In this document: piece after piece, positions 6,327 through 63,420 of the stretch
Layout of the letters: the number at the start of each line of letters is the position of its first letter
Position numbering within the stretch: the stretch's first letter is position 1
DNA from: a bacterium
GTDB lineage: Bacteria > Patescibacteriota > Minisyncoccia > Phycocordibacterales > UBA6899
Assembly (NCBI GenBank): GCA_021851895.1
Contig: JAJZQJ010000003.1
Span: forward strand, 1-63,420
Length of the DNA stretch: 63,420 nucleotides
Direction of reading: 5' to 3'
Position numbers and translations under genes: made by a program
Notes under the pieces: generated by a model
Seen by the model: the letters and a program-made list of their open reading frames with translations, nothing else
Databases searched by the model: none
Told to the model about the DNA's origin: nothing

Positions 6327-7065
6327 TATAGCAAAAAAAGCCCTGCAACGGATTGTTGAGGGTGGCATCACACCAGAGTCGAAAACCGTTGCGAATTTAC
6401 GCAAGTTTGGTTTTTGGCTTCCGGTCATTCTTGCTCTTGTTTTTGGCTCACTCGCAAGTGCAGGAATGTTCTTTGTGCTGATGAACGGTGATTGGGATCT
6501 CCTTGGTCGTTTCGGTGCAGGATTCATCGTGCGCTCAATGCCATATTTCTGGTTGTTTTTCCTCGTCGTCTTTGTGCTCCTCGGTGAGTTTTCTTATGCA
6601 AAGACCACAATTGGCTATCGCTATGGCCCAGTAAAGGTCATCATCACCTACGTGCTTTCAACGATGCTTCTTGGTGGCGTATTCTTGTCACTCGGTGGTG
6701 GGGCTCTGTTCGAGCGAGCGATGTCCGTAAGAGGCATCATGCGTGACATCATGTTCAATCAAACCGAAGTCTGGTCACATCCCGATCAGGGCTTGCTCTC
6801 AGGTACGATAAAAGACATTGGAACATCTACACTACGGTTGGTTGATTTTAGCGGTGTTGAGTGGTCAGTTGATACACAGCACGCGCTTATAAGAGGGCGC
6901 GTGCAATTAGAAAATGGGGAGGCGGTCAAATTACTGGGCACCATGACCGCGAGCGGTTTTGCTGCAAGCGAGATACGCCCCTGGGTAGGAAATGGTTCTA
7001 TGCGAGGCAACGGTCTGCGCAATGGGAGTGGTGCTGGAGTAGGTCGACTTGGTGGAATGCGATAA
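6316..7065 (+). CDS. multi-pass membrane protein, candidate anti-sigma partner
   Basis: Start overlaps the sigma gene stop by 11 nt. 4-5 TM helices. The anti-sigma role is inferred from position only. Confidence 0.45.
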   Translation: MENDIAKKALQRIVEGGITPESKTVANLRKFGFWLPVILALVFGSLASAGMFFVLMNGDWDLLGRFGAGFIVRSMPYFWLFFLVVFVLLGEFSYAKTTIGYRYGPVKVIITYVLSTMLLGGVFLSLGGGALFERAMSVRGIMRDIMFNQTEVWSHPDQGLLSGTIKDIGTSTLRLVDFSGVEWSVDTQHALIRGRVQLENGEAVKLLGTMTASGFAASEIRPWVGNGSMRGNGLRNGSGAGVGRLGGMR

Positions 7066-42547: not shown

Positions 42548-42620
42548 GGGCCCATAGCTCAGTTGGTAGAGCAGCGCATTTGCAATGCGAAGGTCGCAGG
42601 TTCAAATCCTGTTGGGTCCA
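42548..42620 (+). tRNA. tRNA-Ala (anticodon UGC)
   Basis: Acceptor GGGCCCA/TGGGTCC with the G3:U70 Ala identity pair, D-arm GCTC-AGTTGGTA-GAGC, anticodon loop TTTGCAA, T-arm GCAGG-TTCAAAT-CCTGT, discriminator A. No encoded CCA. Confidence 0.9.
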
Positions 42621-42665
42621 CAGAGGCAGAAAAAAGAGCGTAAGCTCTTTTTTCTTTTGCCTCTG
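42621..42665. terminator. A/T-flanked hairpin abutting the tRNA-Ala 3' end (bidirectional terminator-like)
   Basis: cagaggcagaaaaaagagc-gtaa-gctcttttttcttttgcctctg. Homologous hairpins at 61797-61840 and 63213-63257. Confidence 0.6.
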
Positions 42666-42832
42666 TGAGACCCAACAGGATTTGAATGGCGGAGGCCGCG
42701 AAGCCGGCCGCTGAGGCTCCCGGCCGAAGCGGCCGTGGCCGAGCCGGGGTCGCGAGCACTTAGCGCTTTTGGATGCAAAGCATCCAAAACGCTTTGTGAC
42801 TCGTGACCAAATCCTGTTGGGTCCTCCATTCC
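42666..42832 (-). ncRNA. candidate structured RNA unit A1: GC-rich core framed by inverted and direct copies of the tRNA-Ala 3' end
   Basis: 42669-42686 is the reverse complement of tRNA positions 42601-42618. 42807-42828 is a direct copy plus TCCA. Core 42687-42806 is homologous to 61530-61595, 61700-61775 and 63111-63190. Strand assignment is inferred. Confidence 0.45.
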
Positions 42833-43040
42833 ACTACAAGTATTTGTATTTTGATTTATGAGGTGACAGAGGGGCAAATCCTGTTGGGTCTCTCTGCTTA
42901 GGAGCGAAGCACCTATTTGCATTTTTGACTCGTGACCAAATCCTGTTGGGTCCTCCATTCTTCTATGAGTATTTGTATTTTTATTTAGTACGCTGAAGAA
43001 TACAAACTCACGTTCGGTTAATACATGCTCAAAACGCAAT
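42833..43040 (-). repeat. degenerate second unit (A2) and leader module of the tRNA-Ala-linked element
   Basis: Further tRNA-3'-end copies at 42875-42890 and 42936-42957. About 70-nt direct repeat 42791-42862 / 42919-42992. 42983-43011 resembles the leader at 61426-61454. Confidence 0.4.
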
Positions 43041-61399: not shown

Positions 61400-61796
61400 G
61401 GGCAAACGTAAAACCGTTTCGGTTTGAGTTTGAATGACGCTTCGCGTACTGAATCGGATTCAAGGACTCGTCCCTCTGTCACCTCCATATATTTCATCGC
61501 TTCGCTCGAAATCTATGGGGTGCAGGTGGGGCCAGGGCTCGGCCACGGCCGCTTCGGACGGGTCCTCAGCGGCCGGCTCCGCGGCCTCCGCCCTACGAGT
61601 CCTTGAGGGGGTGGCAACAAAAACAAAAAAGACGCTTTCGCGTCAAGCGAGGACTCGACACGGCTCACAAAGCATTTCATTGCGCTGCGCTTATGAAATG
61701 CTAAGTGGCCGTCGTCACGGCTCGGCGACCCTGCGCTGCGCGAAGACGCGCGAGCGAGGGTGCCCGCCTCCGCCTTTCGAGTCCTTGAGGGGGTGG
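61400..61796 (+). ncRNA. candidate structured RNA: conserved 34-nt leader plus two tandem units (B1, B2) framed by tRNA-Lys 3'-end-derived arms
   Basis: Leader 61400-61433 is near-identical to 62923-62956. Antisense arms at 61461-61470 and 61651-61658 pair with sense arms at 61596-61605 and 61777-61784. GC-rich cores are homologous to 42687-42760 and 63131-63190. Strand is inferred. Confidence 0.45.
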
Positions 61797-61840
61797 CAAC
61801 AAAAACAAAAAAAACGCTTTCGCGTCTTTTTTGTTTGTTG
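61797..61840. terminator. A/T-flanked hairpin abutting the tRNA-Lys 3' end (bidirectional terminator-like)
   Basis: caacaaaaacaaaaaaaacgc-tttc-gcgtcttttttgtttgttg. A truncated copy lies at 61613-61644. Confidence 0.6.
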
Positions 61841-61913
61841 TCCCCCCTCAAGGACTCGAACCTTGGACCGTCTCGTTAAGAGCGAGCTGCTCTACCAACT
61901 GAGCTAAGGAGGG
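61841..61913 (-). tRNA. tRNA-Lys (anticodon CUU)
   Basis: Reverse complement folds as acceptor CCCTCCT/AGGGGGG, D-arm GCTC-AGTTGGTA-GAGC, anticodon loop CTCTTAA, T-arm CAAGG-TTCGAGT-CCTTG, discriminator A. Has an unusual C1:G72 pair and a G27.A43 mismatch. Confidence 0.8.
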
Positions 61914-61995
61914 ATGGGGATATAGTACCAAATTTGCAAAATATTGCAAGCGTTTTGCATGAAAAAACACAACGCATGGTTGTGTTTGGGGGTGG

Positions 61996-62361
61996 TCATT
62001 CAGCTTCAGGAAATTCTTGAATTTTCCAAAAGTCATCACGCCGGAGCGAAACTGTCTTCATGCGATCGGGCTGGACGTGGCCATGCCTGTACTCGCCGAA
62101 CTTGTCTGTGCAGACGTTGTCGCCGGTCGTGCGGTTGATCCGATGCATTTTCTTGTTGGTGCAGGTACACTCGCCGATGTGGGGTTCCAGTATGTTCACG
62201 GTGAAGACCTCTTGAGGCTCATCATCTCCTTTGGTCTCCTCCTTCAGAATACCCGTAATCACTCCGACACGCCGCTTCGTGGTATGGTTCCTTTTTGCGG
62301 CCTTTCTGCTGAGAACCACGGTCATGCCTTTGGTGATCACTTCGGGGATGATGGGGGCCAT
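61996..62361 (-). CDS. small Cys/His-rich (zinc-ribbon-like) protein, paralog of 62481-62831
   Basis: AGGAGG SD 6 nt upstream of ATG. ECTCTNKKMHRINRTTGDNVCTDKFGEYRHGH aligns with the neighbour's CSRCNGPVRVNRTTGEAVCKNSDCNHRHGF. Confidence 0.6.
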   Translation of the reverse strand: MAPIIPEVITKGMTVVLSRKAAKRNHTTKRRVGVITGILKEETKGDDEPQEVFTVNILEPHIGECTCTNKKMHRINRTTGDNVCTDKFGEYRHGHVQPDRMKTVSLRRDDFWKIQEFPEAE

Positions 62362-62480
62362 CGATTTCCTCCTGATTTACTTTGTACAGAGCTCGGGGAA
62401 CAATAACATATAGTATAAAAAAGTCAAGTAATGAAAAAGGCTCGCGCATAACGCGAGCCGTGTGACTTGATGTGCTGGGC

Positions 62481-62831
62481 CTAGTACTCGTCCTGCATGG
62501 GGCTGAAGTCATCCTTCGCGAGATCGCTGAGGACGACGCCCTGGGGATGGGTGATGAACCCATGCCGGTGATTGCAGTCCGAGTTCTTGCAGACCGCCTC
62601 GCCGGTCGTCCGATTGACGCGGACGGGGCCGTTGCAGCGACTGCAGTTCTCCGCCGTACGGGGAAGCAGGAGCTTGGCCGTGTAGGTGACCTTGATCATG
62701 CCGCGCTCATCGCCGGTGCGATGGACGTCAGTGATCACGGCGGCCCTGAGGCCGGAGACCTTCTTCTTCTCGAGGGCCGACTTGCAGACGAGGATCTGGG
62801 AGCCCTTGGGGATTTCGAGAACTGTGGACAT
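62481..62831 (-). CDS. small four-Cys zinc-ribbon-like protein, strongly GC-rich coding sequence
   Basis: Start MSTVLEIPKG (alternative upstream ATG 62903). Own terminator ggctcgcg-ttat-cgcgagcc at ~62443-62462. Paralogous to 61996-62361. Confidence 0.6.
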   Translation of the reverse strand: MSTVLEIPKGSQILVCKSALEKKKVSGLRAAVITDVHRTGDERGMIKVTYTAKLLLPRTAENCSRCNGPVRVNRTTGEAVCKNSDCNHRHGFITHPQGVVLSDLAKDDFSPMQDEY

Positions 62832-62922
62832 GTGTCCCTTTCTTTGAAAGTGGAACGGGTTATCCGTCCGAAGATATAATAGCATATTTTTGGGGAAAGT
62901 CAATAGATACTATTTAATGCTT

Positions 62923-63060
62923 GGGCAAACGTAAAACCGTTCCGGTTTGAGTTTGATGGAGCGCAAAGCGCGCTGGTACAGATACTTCTAATACACAGGG
63001 AGCCGAAAAACCCTTTAGGTTTTTGACTCATTGAGTGCTCTGCACGCAGAATAGGATTCT
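62923..63060 (+). ncRNA. leader of the third tRNA-type element locus (conserved 34-nt 5' module plus variable hairpins)
   Basis: gggcaaacgtaaaaccgttccggtttgagtttga preceded by the -10-like TATTTA (62911-62916). A TATAAT also lies at 62875-62880. Confidence 0.4.
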
Positions 63061-63420
63061 GGGACTCGGTCACAAGTCACTAAGTCTTTAGCCAGCAGAG
63101 CTGTCAAAAGCCTAAGTGCTCGTGACCACGGCTCGGCTACAGCCGCTTCGGCTGGGAAGCCTTCAGCGGCTGGCTTCGCAGCCTCCGCCTTTCGAGTCCC
63201 GCCCCGGAGTCACAGTGGCATAAGAAAAAAGAGCTTGCGCTCTTTTTTCTGCCACTGTGCCGGAGAAACGAATCAGACGGGACTCGGTCACAAGTCACTA
63301 AGTCTTTAGCCAGCAGAGCTGTCAAAAGCCTAAGTGCTCGTGACCACGGCTCGGCTACAGCCGCTTCGGCTGGGAAGCCTTCAGCGGCTGGCTTCGCAGC
63401 CTCCGCCTTTCGAGTCCCGC
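63061..63420 (+). repeat. perfect 218-bp tandem repeat (1.65 copies visible, runs off the window) of the GC-rich core, tRNA-like 3' arm and hairpin
   Basis: 63061-63202 is identical to 63279-63420. Each unit has arms GGGACTCG / CGAGTCCC, a core homologous to loci A and B, and hairpin 63213-63257. Confidence 0.85.

Follow-up and report, generated by a model that had tools for sequence, protein, structure and literature searches.

Positions 1 to 63,420 of contig JAJZQJ010000003.1 (assembly GCA_021851895.1; Patescibacteriota; Minisyncoccia; Phycocordibacterales; UBA6899), referred to here as the window, end in a tandem repeat that we call locus 3. Its unit consists of a short 5' arm, a folded core of two domains, a 3' arm and a long hairpin, and related units stand beside the tRNA-Ala gene (locus 1) and the tRNA-Lys gene (locus 2) of the same window (Table 1). 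This anatomy and the homology of locus 3 to the two other loci had been put forward in an earlier note made from the letters alone, and both are correct: every block named there was found in its place by direct reading, and direct reading and a repeat search agreed that 63061–63202 and 63279–63420 are 100% identical over 142 nt at a spacing of 218. The unit belongs to an uncatalogued, clade-wide family of structured elements of ~150 nt in the tiny-genome Patescibacteria, bracketed by copies of tRNA tails and similar in architecture to the RtT repeats of Escherichia coli. Absent from the note were the spread of the family through the clade, the nature of the 5' arm as a direct duplicate of the end of the tRNA gene, and the agreement in layout with RtT. 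We consider it probable that locus 3 is a tandemly duplicated member of this Patescibacteria-specific family, which lies directly downstream of tRNA genes, and that the element is an RtT-like structured RNA, a single-stranded DNA structure being the less likely form.

The 3' arm of locus 3 is a sense copy of the T-loop, the 3' strand of the T-stem and the 3' strand of the acceptor of a tRNA. Within core domain 1 the CAC-UAAG/CUAA-GUG helix is near-invariant and contains an A.A mismatch, and P3 is a variable distal hairpin. The long hairpin has features typical of a bidirectional intrinsic terminator and is taken as a putative one; it is 92% matched to the hairpin after tRNA-Ala (42619–42668), and its loop is of the GNRA type (GCAA) on the minus strand. 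Homology had been claimed for the tRNA-Lys hairpin as well. That hairpin is alike only in position and type, namely a bidirectional terminator, and no sequence repeat family joins it to the hairpin of locus 3. Tandem Repeats Finder (TRF) gave no entry for the array at 63061–63420 because only ~1.65 copies are visible.

Table 1. Coordinates of the elements and adjoining tRNA genes in the window.
Feature	Position	Strand	Description
Leader of locus 3	62923..63060	+	Two diverged module copies, 62923-62956 and 62997-63030
5' arm (S') of locus 3	63061..63068	+	GGGACTCG; closing helix P1; reverse complement of T-loop/T-stem part of the 3' arm
GGTCACAAGTCAC block	from 63068	+	Locus 3 unit
Core domain 1	63069..63129	+	P2 (GGTCAC../..GTGACC), CAC-UAAG/CUAA-GUG helix and P3, from covariation
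CTAAGTG block	at 63112	+	Locus 3 unit
Core domain 2	63130..63189	+	Variable GC-rich hairpins between invariant GGCTCGGC and GCCTCCGCC
GGCTCGGC	63130-63137	+	Locus 3, direct reading
GCCTCCGCC	63181-63189	+	Locus 3, direct reading
3' arm (S) of locus 3	63190..63209	+	T + TTCGAGT-CCCGC-CCCGGAG; TTCGAGTCCCGCCCCGGAG at 63191-63209
Long hairpin	63210..63259	.	Inner A-tract, GC stem, T-tract; repeat search and fold
Inter-unit spacer	63260..63278	+	CCGGAGAAACGAATCAGAC; unit-to-unit junction, shows tandem arrangement
Second, partial unit	63279..63420	+	Identical to 63061-63202; reaches contig end
Locus 2	61400..61839	+	Leader and two units (61455-61604, 61642-61786), terminator at end
tRNA-Lys(CUU)	61840..61913	-	Convergent with locus 2; 3' end TTCGAGTCCTTGAGGGGG copied in both units
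Locus 1	42669..43030	-	Leader, two truncated units, one full unit (42676-42823)
tRNA-Ala(UGC)	42548..42621	+	Convergent with locus 1

A structured family beside tRNA genes

The core of the family is made up of the invariant GGCTCGGC, ~40 nt and GCCTCCGCC, together with covarying helices. The combination GGCTCGGC-N34-48-GCCTCCGCC occurs five times in the window, across three loci, against 0.00 expected. One genome per GTDB species was scanned with the pattern CTAAGTG-N8-14-GGCTCGGC-N32-50-GCCTCCGCC, which takes nothing from the arms or the tRNA. This returned 11 loci, all in Patescibacteria (Paceibacterota, Saccharibacteria, the Parcubacteria group and UBA2163), and all 11 were convergent with a tRNA gene whose 3' end lies 59–76 nt beyond GCCTCCGCC. 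The tRNAs concerned are Phe, Leu(UAG), Leu(CAA), Gly(GCC), Gly(CCC), Gly(UCC), Tyr (twice), Lys(UUU), Glu(CUC) and Val; the convergent tRNAs of loci 1 and 2 stand at the same spacing. Arrays of two units are present in locus 2, L006 and L013. The evidence shows membership in the family, its conserved structure, the obligatory adjacency to tRNA and, as described below, the DNA-level origin of the arms and copying within genomes.

Fourteen units were aligned. The alignment contains 21 invariant columns, and GGCTCGGC and GCCTCCGCC are invariant in every unit. The consensus begins with a closing helix, P1, formed by the 5' arm with the 3' arm. It continues with a long irregular hairpin composed of P2, the near-invariant CAC-UAAG/CUAA-GUG segment and a variable tip, and then with a second domain of variable GC-rich hairpins within the invariant blocks and a linker of U3 (or A3). 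Pairing is possible in 89% of alignment cells, against 37–49% when the partners are slid. Compensatory double changes occur in 22 of 33 pairs, and none of 500 shuffles reached the observed covariation score. As both arms copy the tRNA, the covariation of P1 is not independent evidence; helices 2 and 3 are independent, and there compensatory changes were seen in 15 of 20 pairs. A covariance model (R1) recovered all units with full-length matches of 96–126 bits. It also gave weaker extra units at L006 834–952, L013 1878–1987 and L013 2098–2214, from which the two-unit arrays at L006 and beside the tRNA-Glu of L013 are recognised.

No matching family was found in Rfam 15, searched over the whole window at the gathering threshold and over 61500–63420 at E<=10; the matches were three tRNAs and chance matches of microRNA type. 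A full-text literature search likewise found no described tRNA-adjacent RNA of this kind from the Candidate Phyla Radiation (CPR). A large part of bacterial diversity belongs to the Patescibacteria (CPR), whose genomes are tiny and hold little non-coding DNA. That several tRNA genes per genome carry a conserved structure of ~150 nt for which Rfam 15 holds no model is a gap in the catalogue.

Some variants of the element were also noted. A divergent relative, with a terminator and 19 nt that copy the end of the convergent tRNA in sense, lies in L024 (6520–6692, +) beside tRNA-Leu(CAG) (6693–6775, -). Its invariant blocks are replaced by …GGTGCCCGCACTCAC-TTTCAAGTCC…, and the exact-pattern scan hence undercounts the family. 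The 3' arms of L003, L004, L009 and L013 carry a conserved extra hairpin (GCAAAG-CAG/AAG-TTTGC type) between the T-stem and acceptor parts, in what looks like a structural subtype of the family; the T-loop copy is changed to TTCTCGT in L003, L005 and L013. The gene of tRNA-Gln(UUG) (502–573, -), which is the window's fourth tRNA gene, lacks an element, and its 3' end is not copied in the vicinity, so that the association is frequent but not universal among tRNA genes. A different object was met in L015 (5055–5300; GC-rich contig JAESGS010000555.1), where two adjacent tRNA-like sequences with normal acceptor, D and T arms bear mid insertions of ~50 nt; neither is called by ARAGORN, and the first, in which a G-1:C73 pair may form, ends in ...GGGTTCGAGTCCCGCCCCGGAGCC.

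Between loci 2 and 3 lie the genes of two paralogous small proteins of 121 and 117 aa (61996–62361 and 62481–62834, both -), which share 29% identity (E=1e-12) and a zinc-ribbon-like CxxC...C...H centre. No Pfam family was found for them. An exact-sequence look-up placed the 121-aa protein on a single short Logan contig and nowhere else, and gave no record for the 117-aa protein as delimited here. A link of the element to this pair was rejected, as the other 11 loci have no homologue and no Pfam family could be assigned.

Arms, strand and copying of the element

On the strand convergent with the tRNA the order is 5' arm, core, 3' arm, terminator hairpin and antisense tRNA gene. The 5' arm reverse-complements the 3' end of the tRNA from ~C56 to C74, and the 3' arm is a sense copy from T54 to ~position 70–71. 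With respect to the gene end, the former is hence a direct and the latter an inverted repeat. In most units both arms copy the T-loop-to-3' end of the neighbouring tRNA, once inverted (~+47 to +66 nt from the tRNA) and once direct (~+176 to +211 nt); the exceptions are the distal unit of L009 and the 3' arm of L012, which has two mismatches. A unit has a conserved two-domain core and two arms that are both DNA-level copies of the end of the neighbouring tRNA gene. The tRNA-distal arm is a direct duplicate, the tRNA-proximal arm an inverted duplicate on the far side of the palindromic terminator from the real tRNA end, and pairing of the arms closes the core into a three-way junction.

The 5' arm copies the gene at the level of DNA. 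An A-U pair takes the place of G3.U70 of tRNA-Ala, the 5' arm being the exact reverse complement of the tRNA 3' strand, and the 5' arm of L005 has G where tRNA-Leu has A6 opposite C67. Mimicry of the acceptor stem by selection was rejected, since the 5' arm reverse-complements the 3' strand and does not copy the 5' strand of the tRNA. The direct repeat runs on into the tRNA trailer in L003 and L013, to 25 and 44 nt. Locus 1 contains one inverted and three direct copies of the tRNA-Ala 3' end, and its 3' arm and the sequence after it reproduce the trailer and terminator of the tRNA itself, so that the terminator loop is the mirror axis of the stretch between the tRNA end and the terminator. In most tRNA genes (window, L003–L013, L024) the discriminator is followed by CAA, CAG or CAT, with an A after C74, and the few that encode CCA are L010 Leu(CAA), L013 Ser, and L024 Leu(UAA) and Lys. 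CC or CCA does come after the tRNA-distal arm copies in L004, L005, L007, L008 and locus 1. On the question of a native 3' end displaced by the element, most tRNA genes read N73-CAA with or without an element.

Upstream of the full unit of locus 1 are two truncated units (42793–42987, read on the minus strand), listed by TRF as an array of 62-nt period. Both start with the 16-nt 5' arm GACCCAACAGGATTTG; the start of one is of type I (GTCACGAGTCA), and that of the other of type II (CCCCTCTGTCACCTC), as in unit A of locus 2. Arrays hence decay as well as grow. In L009 (735–917, -), on the complete genome CP174359.1, the distal member of an array of two units lacks the 5' arm; its 3' region reads TCGGACTTGTATC, conserved hairpin, TATCAAGTCCGCCCAC and does not match the tRNA-Lys(UUU) next to the array. 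A perfect 20-nt copy of the end of that tRNA is carried by the proximal unit, the core of which is quite different.

The arms being inverted repeats, an antisense arm, the core and a sense arm follow one another on either strand, and the strand has to be chosen on independent evidence. Transcription of the element, the strand that would act, the mechanism of copying and any role in the cell are inferred. For the tRNA-convergent strand, a promoter scan gave a sigma-70-like match (63023–63052, TTGACT-18-CAGAAT) that ends 8 nt before the unit of locus 3, in a leader common to the three window loci and L025. The inter-unit hairpin of locus 2 has a T-tract only on the other strand, so that leader, unit A, unit B and terminator make a coherent transcription unit. 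On the same strand G.U exceeds A.C (15 against 8), and loci 2 and 3 give an RtT-like short stem with a 3' acceptor tail. The tRNA-sense strand has the lower minimum free energy in 13 of 14 units and is purine-rich in all 14, with unpaired bases of A282/G243 against C98/U89. Its internal loop and linker read GGA/GA and AAA, its terminator loops read GNRA, and the tRNA-distal arm, which is its 3' arm, is a complete copy followed by CC(A) in some loci. Most other loci have no promoter-like site upstream, which speaks against both strands, and the idea of a promoter before every unit was dropped as not general.

The leader module of locus 3 is also found before loci 1 and 2 and before the element in L025, a relative of 73% identity. 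It contains a small hairpin, TTGAGT/TTGACT, a covarying mini-hairpin and CTGAAT/CAGAAT. In the leaders at 62923–63060, 61400–61462, 42957–43030 (-) and L025 11754–11814 the A/T-rich hairpin AAAACCGTTYCGGTTT comes first, followed by TTGAGT/TTGACT, the small hairpin (ACGC..GCGT vs GTGC..GCAC, compensated) and CTGAAT/CAGAAT. It is odd for a would-be promoter to have a covarying hairpin in its spacer; the other strand reads hairpins and a weak terminator.

Copying within genomes is seen most clearly in L006 and L012, which lie on one contig behind tRNA-Gly(GCC) and tRNA-Gly(UCC). From the T-loop part of the 5' arm through to the tRNA, unit 2 of L006 and L012 are identical at 185 of 186 positions. 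The remainder of the L012 5' arm has the sequence of its own tRNA, and its 3' arm keeps the GCC version, with two mismatches to the neighbour. Elsewhere, too, copies from the same genome are the most alike (loci 1 and 3, 73%; L003 and L013, 77%). In the orthologous tRNA-Tyr loci L007 and L010 each 3' arm follows the T-loop variant of its own tRNA (GAAT vs AAAT), and the decayed 5' arm of L010 keeps the other state. These observations are consistent with duplication or conversion between direct repeats, which could also generate the arrays, and with homogenisation of the inverted pair across the palindromic terminator by quasi-palindrome template switching. Such template switching is a known mutational route. 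The element may have spread between tRNA genes, and been amplified in tandem, by recombination or template switching, for which the near-universal T-loop sequence, the direct repeats and the terminator palindrome would serve as anchors.

The less probable alternative, to be reckoned with nevertheless, is mobile DNA akin to miniature inverted-repeat transposable elements (MITEs) or integron cassettes that looks autonomous but depends on an enzyme, inserts at the T-loop-to-3' end of a tRNA gene and duplicates ~19–25 bp of target. The folded core, as single-stranded DNA or RNA, would then be the recognition structure for a recombinase encoded elsewhere, and the RNA would be incidental. One core at 11 or more tRNA species, with arms that mostly fit the neighbour, agrees with this, as do the target direct repeats flanking the units and the way in which arrays abut the tRNA as integron cassettes abut attI. 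The identical copies at two tRNA-Gly genes would have their 5' arm from the target and their 3' arm from the donor, and GCGAAGC-type mini-hairpins occur in 18 places on one strand against 1 on the other. Yet neither the 63-kb window nor the surroundings of the other loci contain an integrase, transposase, reverse transcriptase or Cas gene, and gene conversion between pre-existing copies explains L006 and L012 equally well. A single-crossover site-specific model predicts donor sequence in the tRNA 3' end, which is not seen in L012, and a target duplication of 19–25 bp fits no common transposase. A MITE or DNA transposon has fixed terminal inverted repeats and a short target-site duplication whose length is constant; here the terminal inverted repeats differ from tRNA to tRNA and equal the target, and the duplication is of variable length (8–25 nt or more).

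An unlikely but far-reaching possibility combines retargeting with an RNA: a clade-wide, self-retargeting element whose folded core hops between tRNA genes, with the universal T-loop as landing pad and both arms built from the host tRNA. Every copy would be a bespoke double-stranded image of the acceptor and T helix of its host tRNA. If this were true and the RNA were handled by RNase P, RNase Z, the CCA-adding enzyme or tRNA-recognising proteins, it would make a novel class of decoys or regulators, each specific to a tRNA, in organisms whose regulatory repertoire is minimal, and the RtT repeats of E. coli would be one instance of a general phenomenon.

Very unlikely, in our view, are scars or cis-mobilisable remnants (attL/attR and arm sites) of elements or phages that an integrase inserts at tRNA 3' ends, accreted in tandem. 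A classic mark of integrative elements aimed at tRNA genes is a direct repeat that reaches from the T-loop to the 3' end of the tRNA; such repeats are present here and bound the element, and the unit (~180–220 bp) is near the size of a complex attP. Invariant blocks and compensatory changes across phylum-level distances are, however, unexpected of att arm sites, and the internal inverted copy is left unexplained. There is no integrase nearby and none in the 63 kb, and the donor sequence that a single crossover should leave in one of the two repeats is not seen in L012, whose direct copies both have the target version. Nor did the unit match anything in viral contigs, phage records or plasmid records. 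A phage origin of the DNA itself was rejected, as the window encodes UvrA, UvrB, UvrC, Ddl, LeuRS, MltG/YceG and histidine kinases/two-component systems; it is a Patescibacteria chromosome contig.

The contig end and the predicted tRNA

In three assemblies of this organism the contig ends at the end of the window or within 5 nt of it; that of GCA_027330905.1 stops 5 nt short. A continuation of the array beyond the window, as stated in the note, can hence not be observed in them. Two other contigs with the same 565-aa protein, one of 111 kb, hold no further downstream DNA, and exact-protein look-ups of the last genes led only to contigs that end at the same place. Two relatives' contigs (P0003 and P0002) also end at their own copy of the element. 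L025 ends 197 nt and L026 77 nt after the homologue of the 565-aa protein (73% and 76% protein identity), exactly where their own leader/element copy begins. The elements seem to be systematic assembly breakpoints in metagenome-assembled genomes (MAGs) of Patescibacteria and could hide the adjoining tRNA genes. With this contig and two relatives' contigs ending at elements, the tRNA genes beside them are likely to be missing systematically from MAGs.

The largest default k of MEGAHIT is 141, and the identical stretch in locus 3, at 142 nt, equals k+1 for this value. The second, partial copy is probably a cycle of the de Bruijn assembly graph that was walked twice. From the perfect identity the earlier note had concluded that amplification was very recent or homogenisation ongoing; this is not supported, identity being explained most simply by such a cycle. 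Since it is the assembler that makes the visible copies identical, the 142 nt tell nothing of copy number or divergence. The unit-to-unit junction (hairpin, spacer, unit start) is real, so that at least two tandem copies exist in locus 3. That the repeat at 63061–63420 is purely an artefact, with one unit followed directly by the tRNA, we regard as highly improbable. The k+1 length and the three contig ends at locus 3 are as such a view would have them, but the junction 63260–63278 together with GGGACTCGG must occur in reads for a cycle to form. An independent Logan contig (L002, k=31) stops 30 nt inside the unit, at the very point where two left contexts meet, and arrays of several units are common in the family.

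Beyond 63420, after the last unit, a tRNA gene on the minus strand with the 3' end TTCGAGT-CCCGC-CCCGGA is likely to follow, judging by the other loci. The note's prediction of such a gene finds strong support by analogy, with a convergent tRNA at 11 of 11 scan loci and at both complete loci of the window; the mismatching distal unit of L009 makes it less certain. The gene would be expected ~60–75 nt after the GCCTCCGCC of the last unit and would end in ...TTCGAGTCCCGCCCCGGA(N), its base at position 72 being uncertain because the arms of loci 1 and 2 leave the tRNA after position 71. A metagenome scan for this end found such tRNAs, and neither this array nor this organism. They are mostly tRNA-Leu, and one of them, a tRNA-Leu(UAA), is on a groundwater contig that also bears a divergent family member next to tRNA-Leu(CAG). 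Our best guess for the predicted tRNA is tRNA-Leu.

Relation to RtT and to other known systems

Barely credible is a guide or primer-binding RNA aimed at the tRNA or its gene, with the 5' arm as a primer site of retroviral type for the mature tRNA, or the arms as guide of an RNA-guided nuclease or recombinase in the style of omega-RNA, bridge RNA or the homing CRISPR RNA of CRISPR-associated transposons: the 5' arm does have 16–20 nt complementary to the tRNA 3' end, with TGG, the complement of CCA, before it in L005 and locus 1 and GG in L004, L007 and L008, but the full TGG precedes only 2 of ~11 arms, the arms pair together, which would mask a guide, no gene for TnpB, IscB, IS110, Cas12k, reverse transcriptase or any other effector was found in the window or beside the other loci, and bridge-RNA guides address adjacent half-sites, not one segment on both strands. 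An interspaced array of the CRISPR kind has no counterpart either, the arms being constant within an array and the ~130-nt cores free to differ (units A and B of locus 2).

Integrated islands and phages at tRNA genes (attL/attR), their tandem accretion and cis-mobilisable elements (CIMEs) resemble the family in the direct repeats of the tRNA 3' end that flank an insert and in the arrays at the tRNA. They differ in that the units here are ~200 bp, without an integrase, and have an extra inverted copy and a covarying core, with target sequence in both direct copies of L012. Integron attC sites and the folded attP of the CTX phage are alike in having a conserved structure with a variable stem, a hairpin stem that imitates a double-stranded target, and arrays beside that target. 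No IntI or Xer-type context was found around the elements, whose stem copies a specific tRNA instead of a fixed core site and whose 'cargo' would be just a terminator. The tRNA-like domains of transfer-messenger RNA (tmRNA), viral tRNA-like structures, mascRNA and bacterial Y RNA share a stacked acceptor/T-stem helix with a tRNA 3' strand. The family has no T-arm hairpin and no cloverleaf, and its 5' strand reverse-complements the 3' strand, whereby identity elements such as G3.U70 are erased. A tRNA- or tmRNA-like identity was rejected, as ARAGORN and the Rfam models RF00005 and tmRNA find only the three true tRNAs and none in the units; no T-stem can be formed by GCCTCCGCCT, the sequence on the 5' side of the T-loop copy.

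The closest parallel is RtT. In the 178-bp tandem units of E. coli tyrT-tyrV, AATCCTTCCCCCACCACCA stands at the end of each unit and comprises the final 19 nt of tRNA-Tyr, beginning at the T-loop; each unit also holds an inverted GGGGAAGGAT ~110 nt upstream of it. The consensus of Rfam RtT (RF00391) is closed by exactly this GGGGAAGGAT/AATCCTTCCCCCACCACCA stem, followed by an unpaired acceptor tail, and the model finds four units in E. coli at 133–138 bits. In E. coli K-12 (L028; NC_000913.3 1286500–1288000) one unit lies between tyrT and tyrV and three after tyrV, of which the record annotates one rttR. Each core contains CTTCGACCAAGGTTCGACTCGAG, which resembles the variable-loop and T-arm part of tRNA-Tyr. 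The original papers on the tyrT repeats and RtT are those of Egan & Landy (1978), Rossi et al. (1981) and Bosl & Kersten (1991). To our knowledge no function is established for any such element, even RtT, whose function has been unclear since 1991.

Along with this lack of a known function, several points weigh against an RtT-like RNA at locus 3. The strand is ambiguous, the two strands standing at roughly even odds. The contig ends before any tRNA beyond 63420 is seen, and in L009 the arms of a distal unit do not match the neighbouring tRNA. RF00391 gave no match in 61500–63420 on either strand at E<=10 and none in the whole window at its gathering score (45 bits), so that the kinship with RtT is architectural only. 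The element is of the RtT kind and not a member of RF00391. For rttR, PMC3318445 (citing Bosl & Kersten 1991) and bioRxiv 10.1101/2024.07.17.603846 report an RNA that is cut out of the transcript of tyrT, with a possible connection to the stringent response.

The Patescibacteria elements differ from RtT in several respects. Their cores are unrelated, with invariant blocks of their own and no similarity by sequence or covariance model, and their arms reach 19–20 bp. They occur at many tRNA species, whereas RtT occurs at one enterobacterial operon. A bidirectional terminator stands between the tRNA and the first unit, which makes co-transcription with the tRNA doubtful, and the RNA may run convergent to the tRNA. 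The likeness lies in the layout of the DNA, which in both is tRNA, ~45–60 nt, inverted copy, structured core and direct copy, repeated: units of ~180 bp in tandem directly downstream of a tRNA gene. An RtT unit holds a 19-nt direct copy of the tRNA T-loop-to-3' end with an inverted copy ~110 nt away. Here as there these copies pair into a stem that closes an RNA of several hairpins and leaves the remainder of the acceptor strand as a tail. In locus 3 this stem is GGGACTCG/CGAGTCCC and the tail GCCCCGGAG, and the same arrangement was found in 14 units. GCGAAGC mini-hairpins are present on the purine-rich strand in both. The arrangement at E. coli tyrT is not a one-off, and the family provides a comparative handle on what RNAs bracketed by tRNA tails do and on how they arise.

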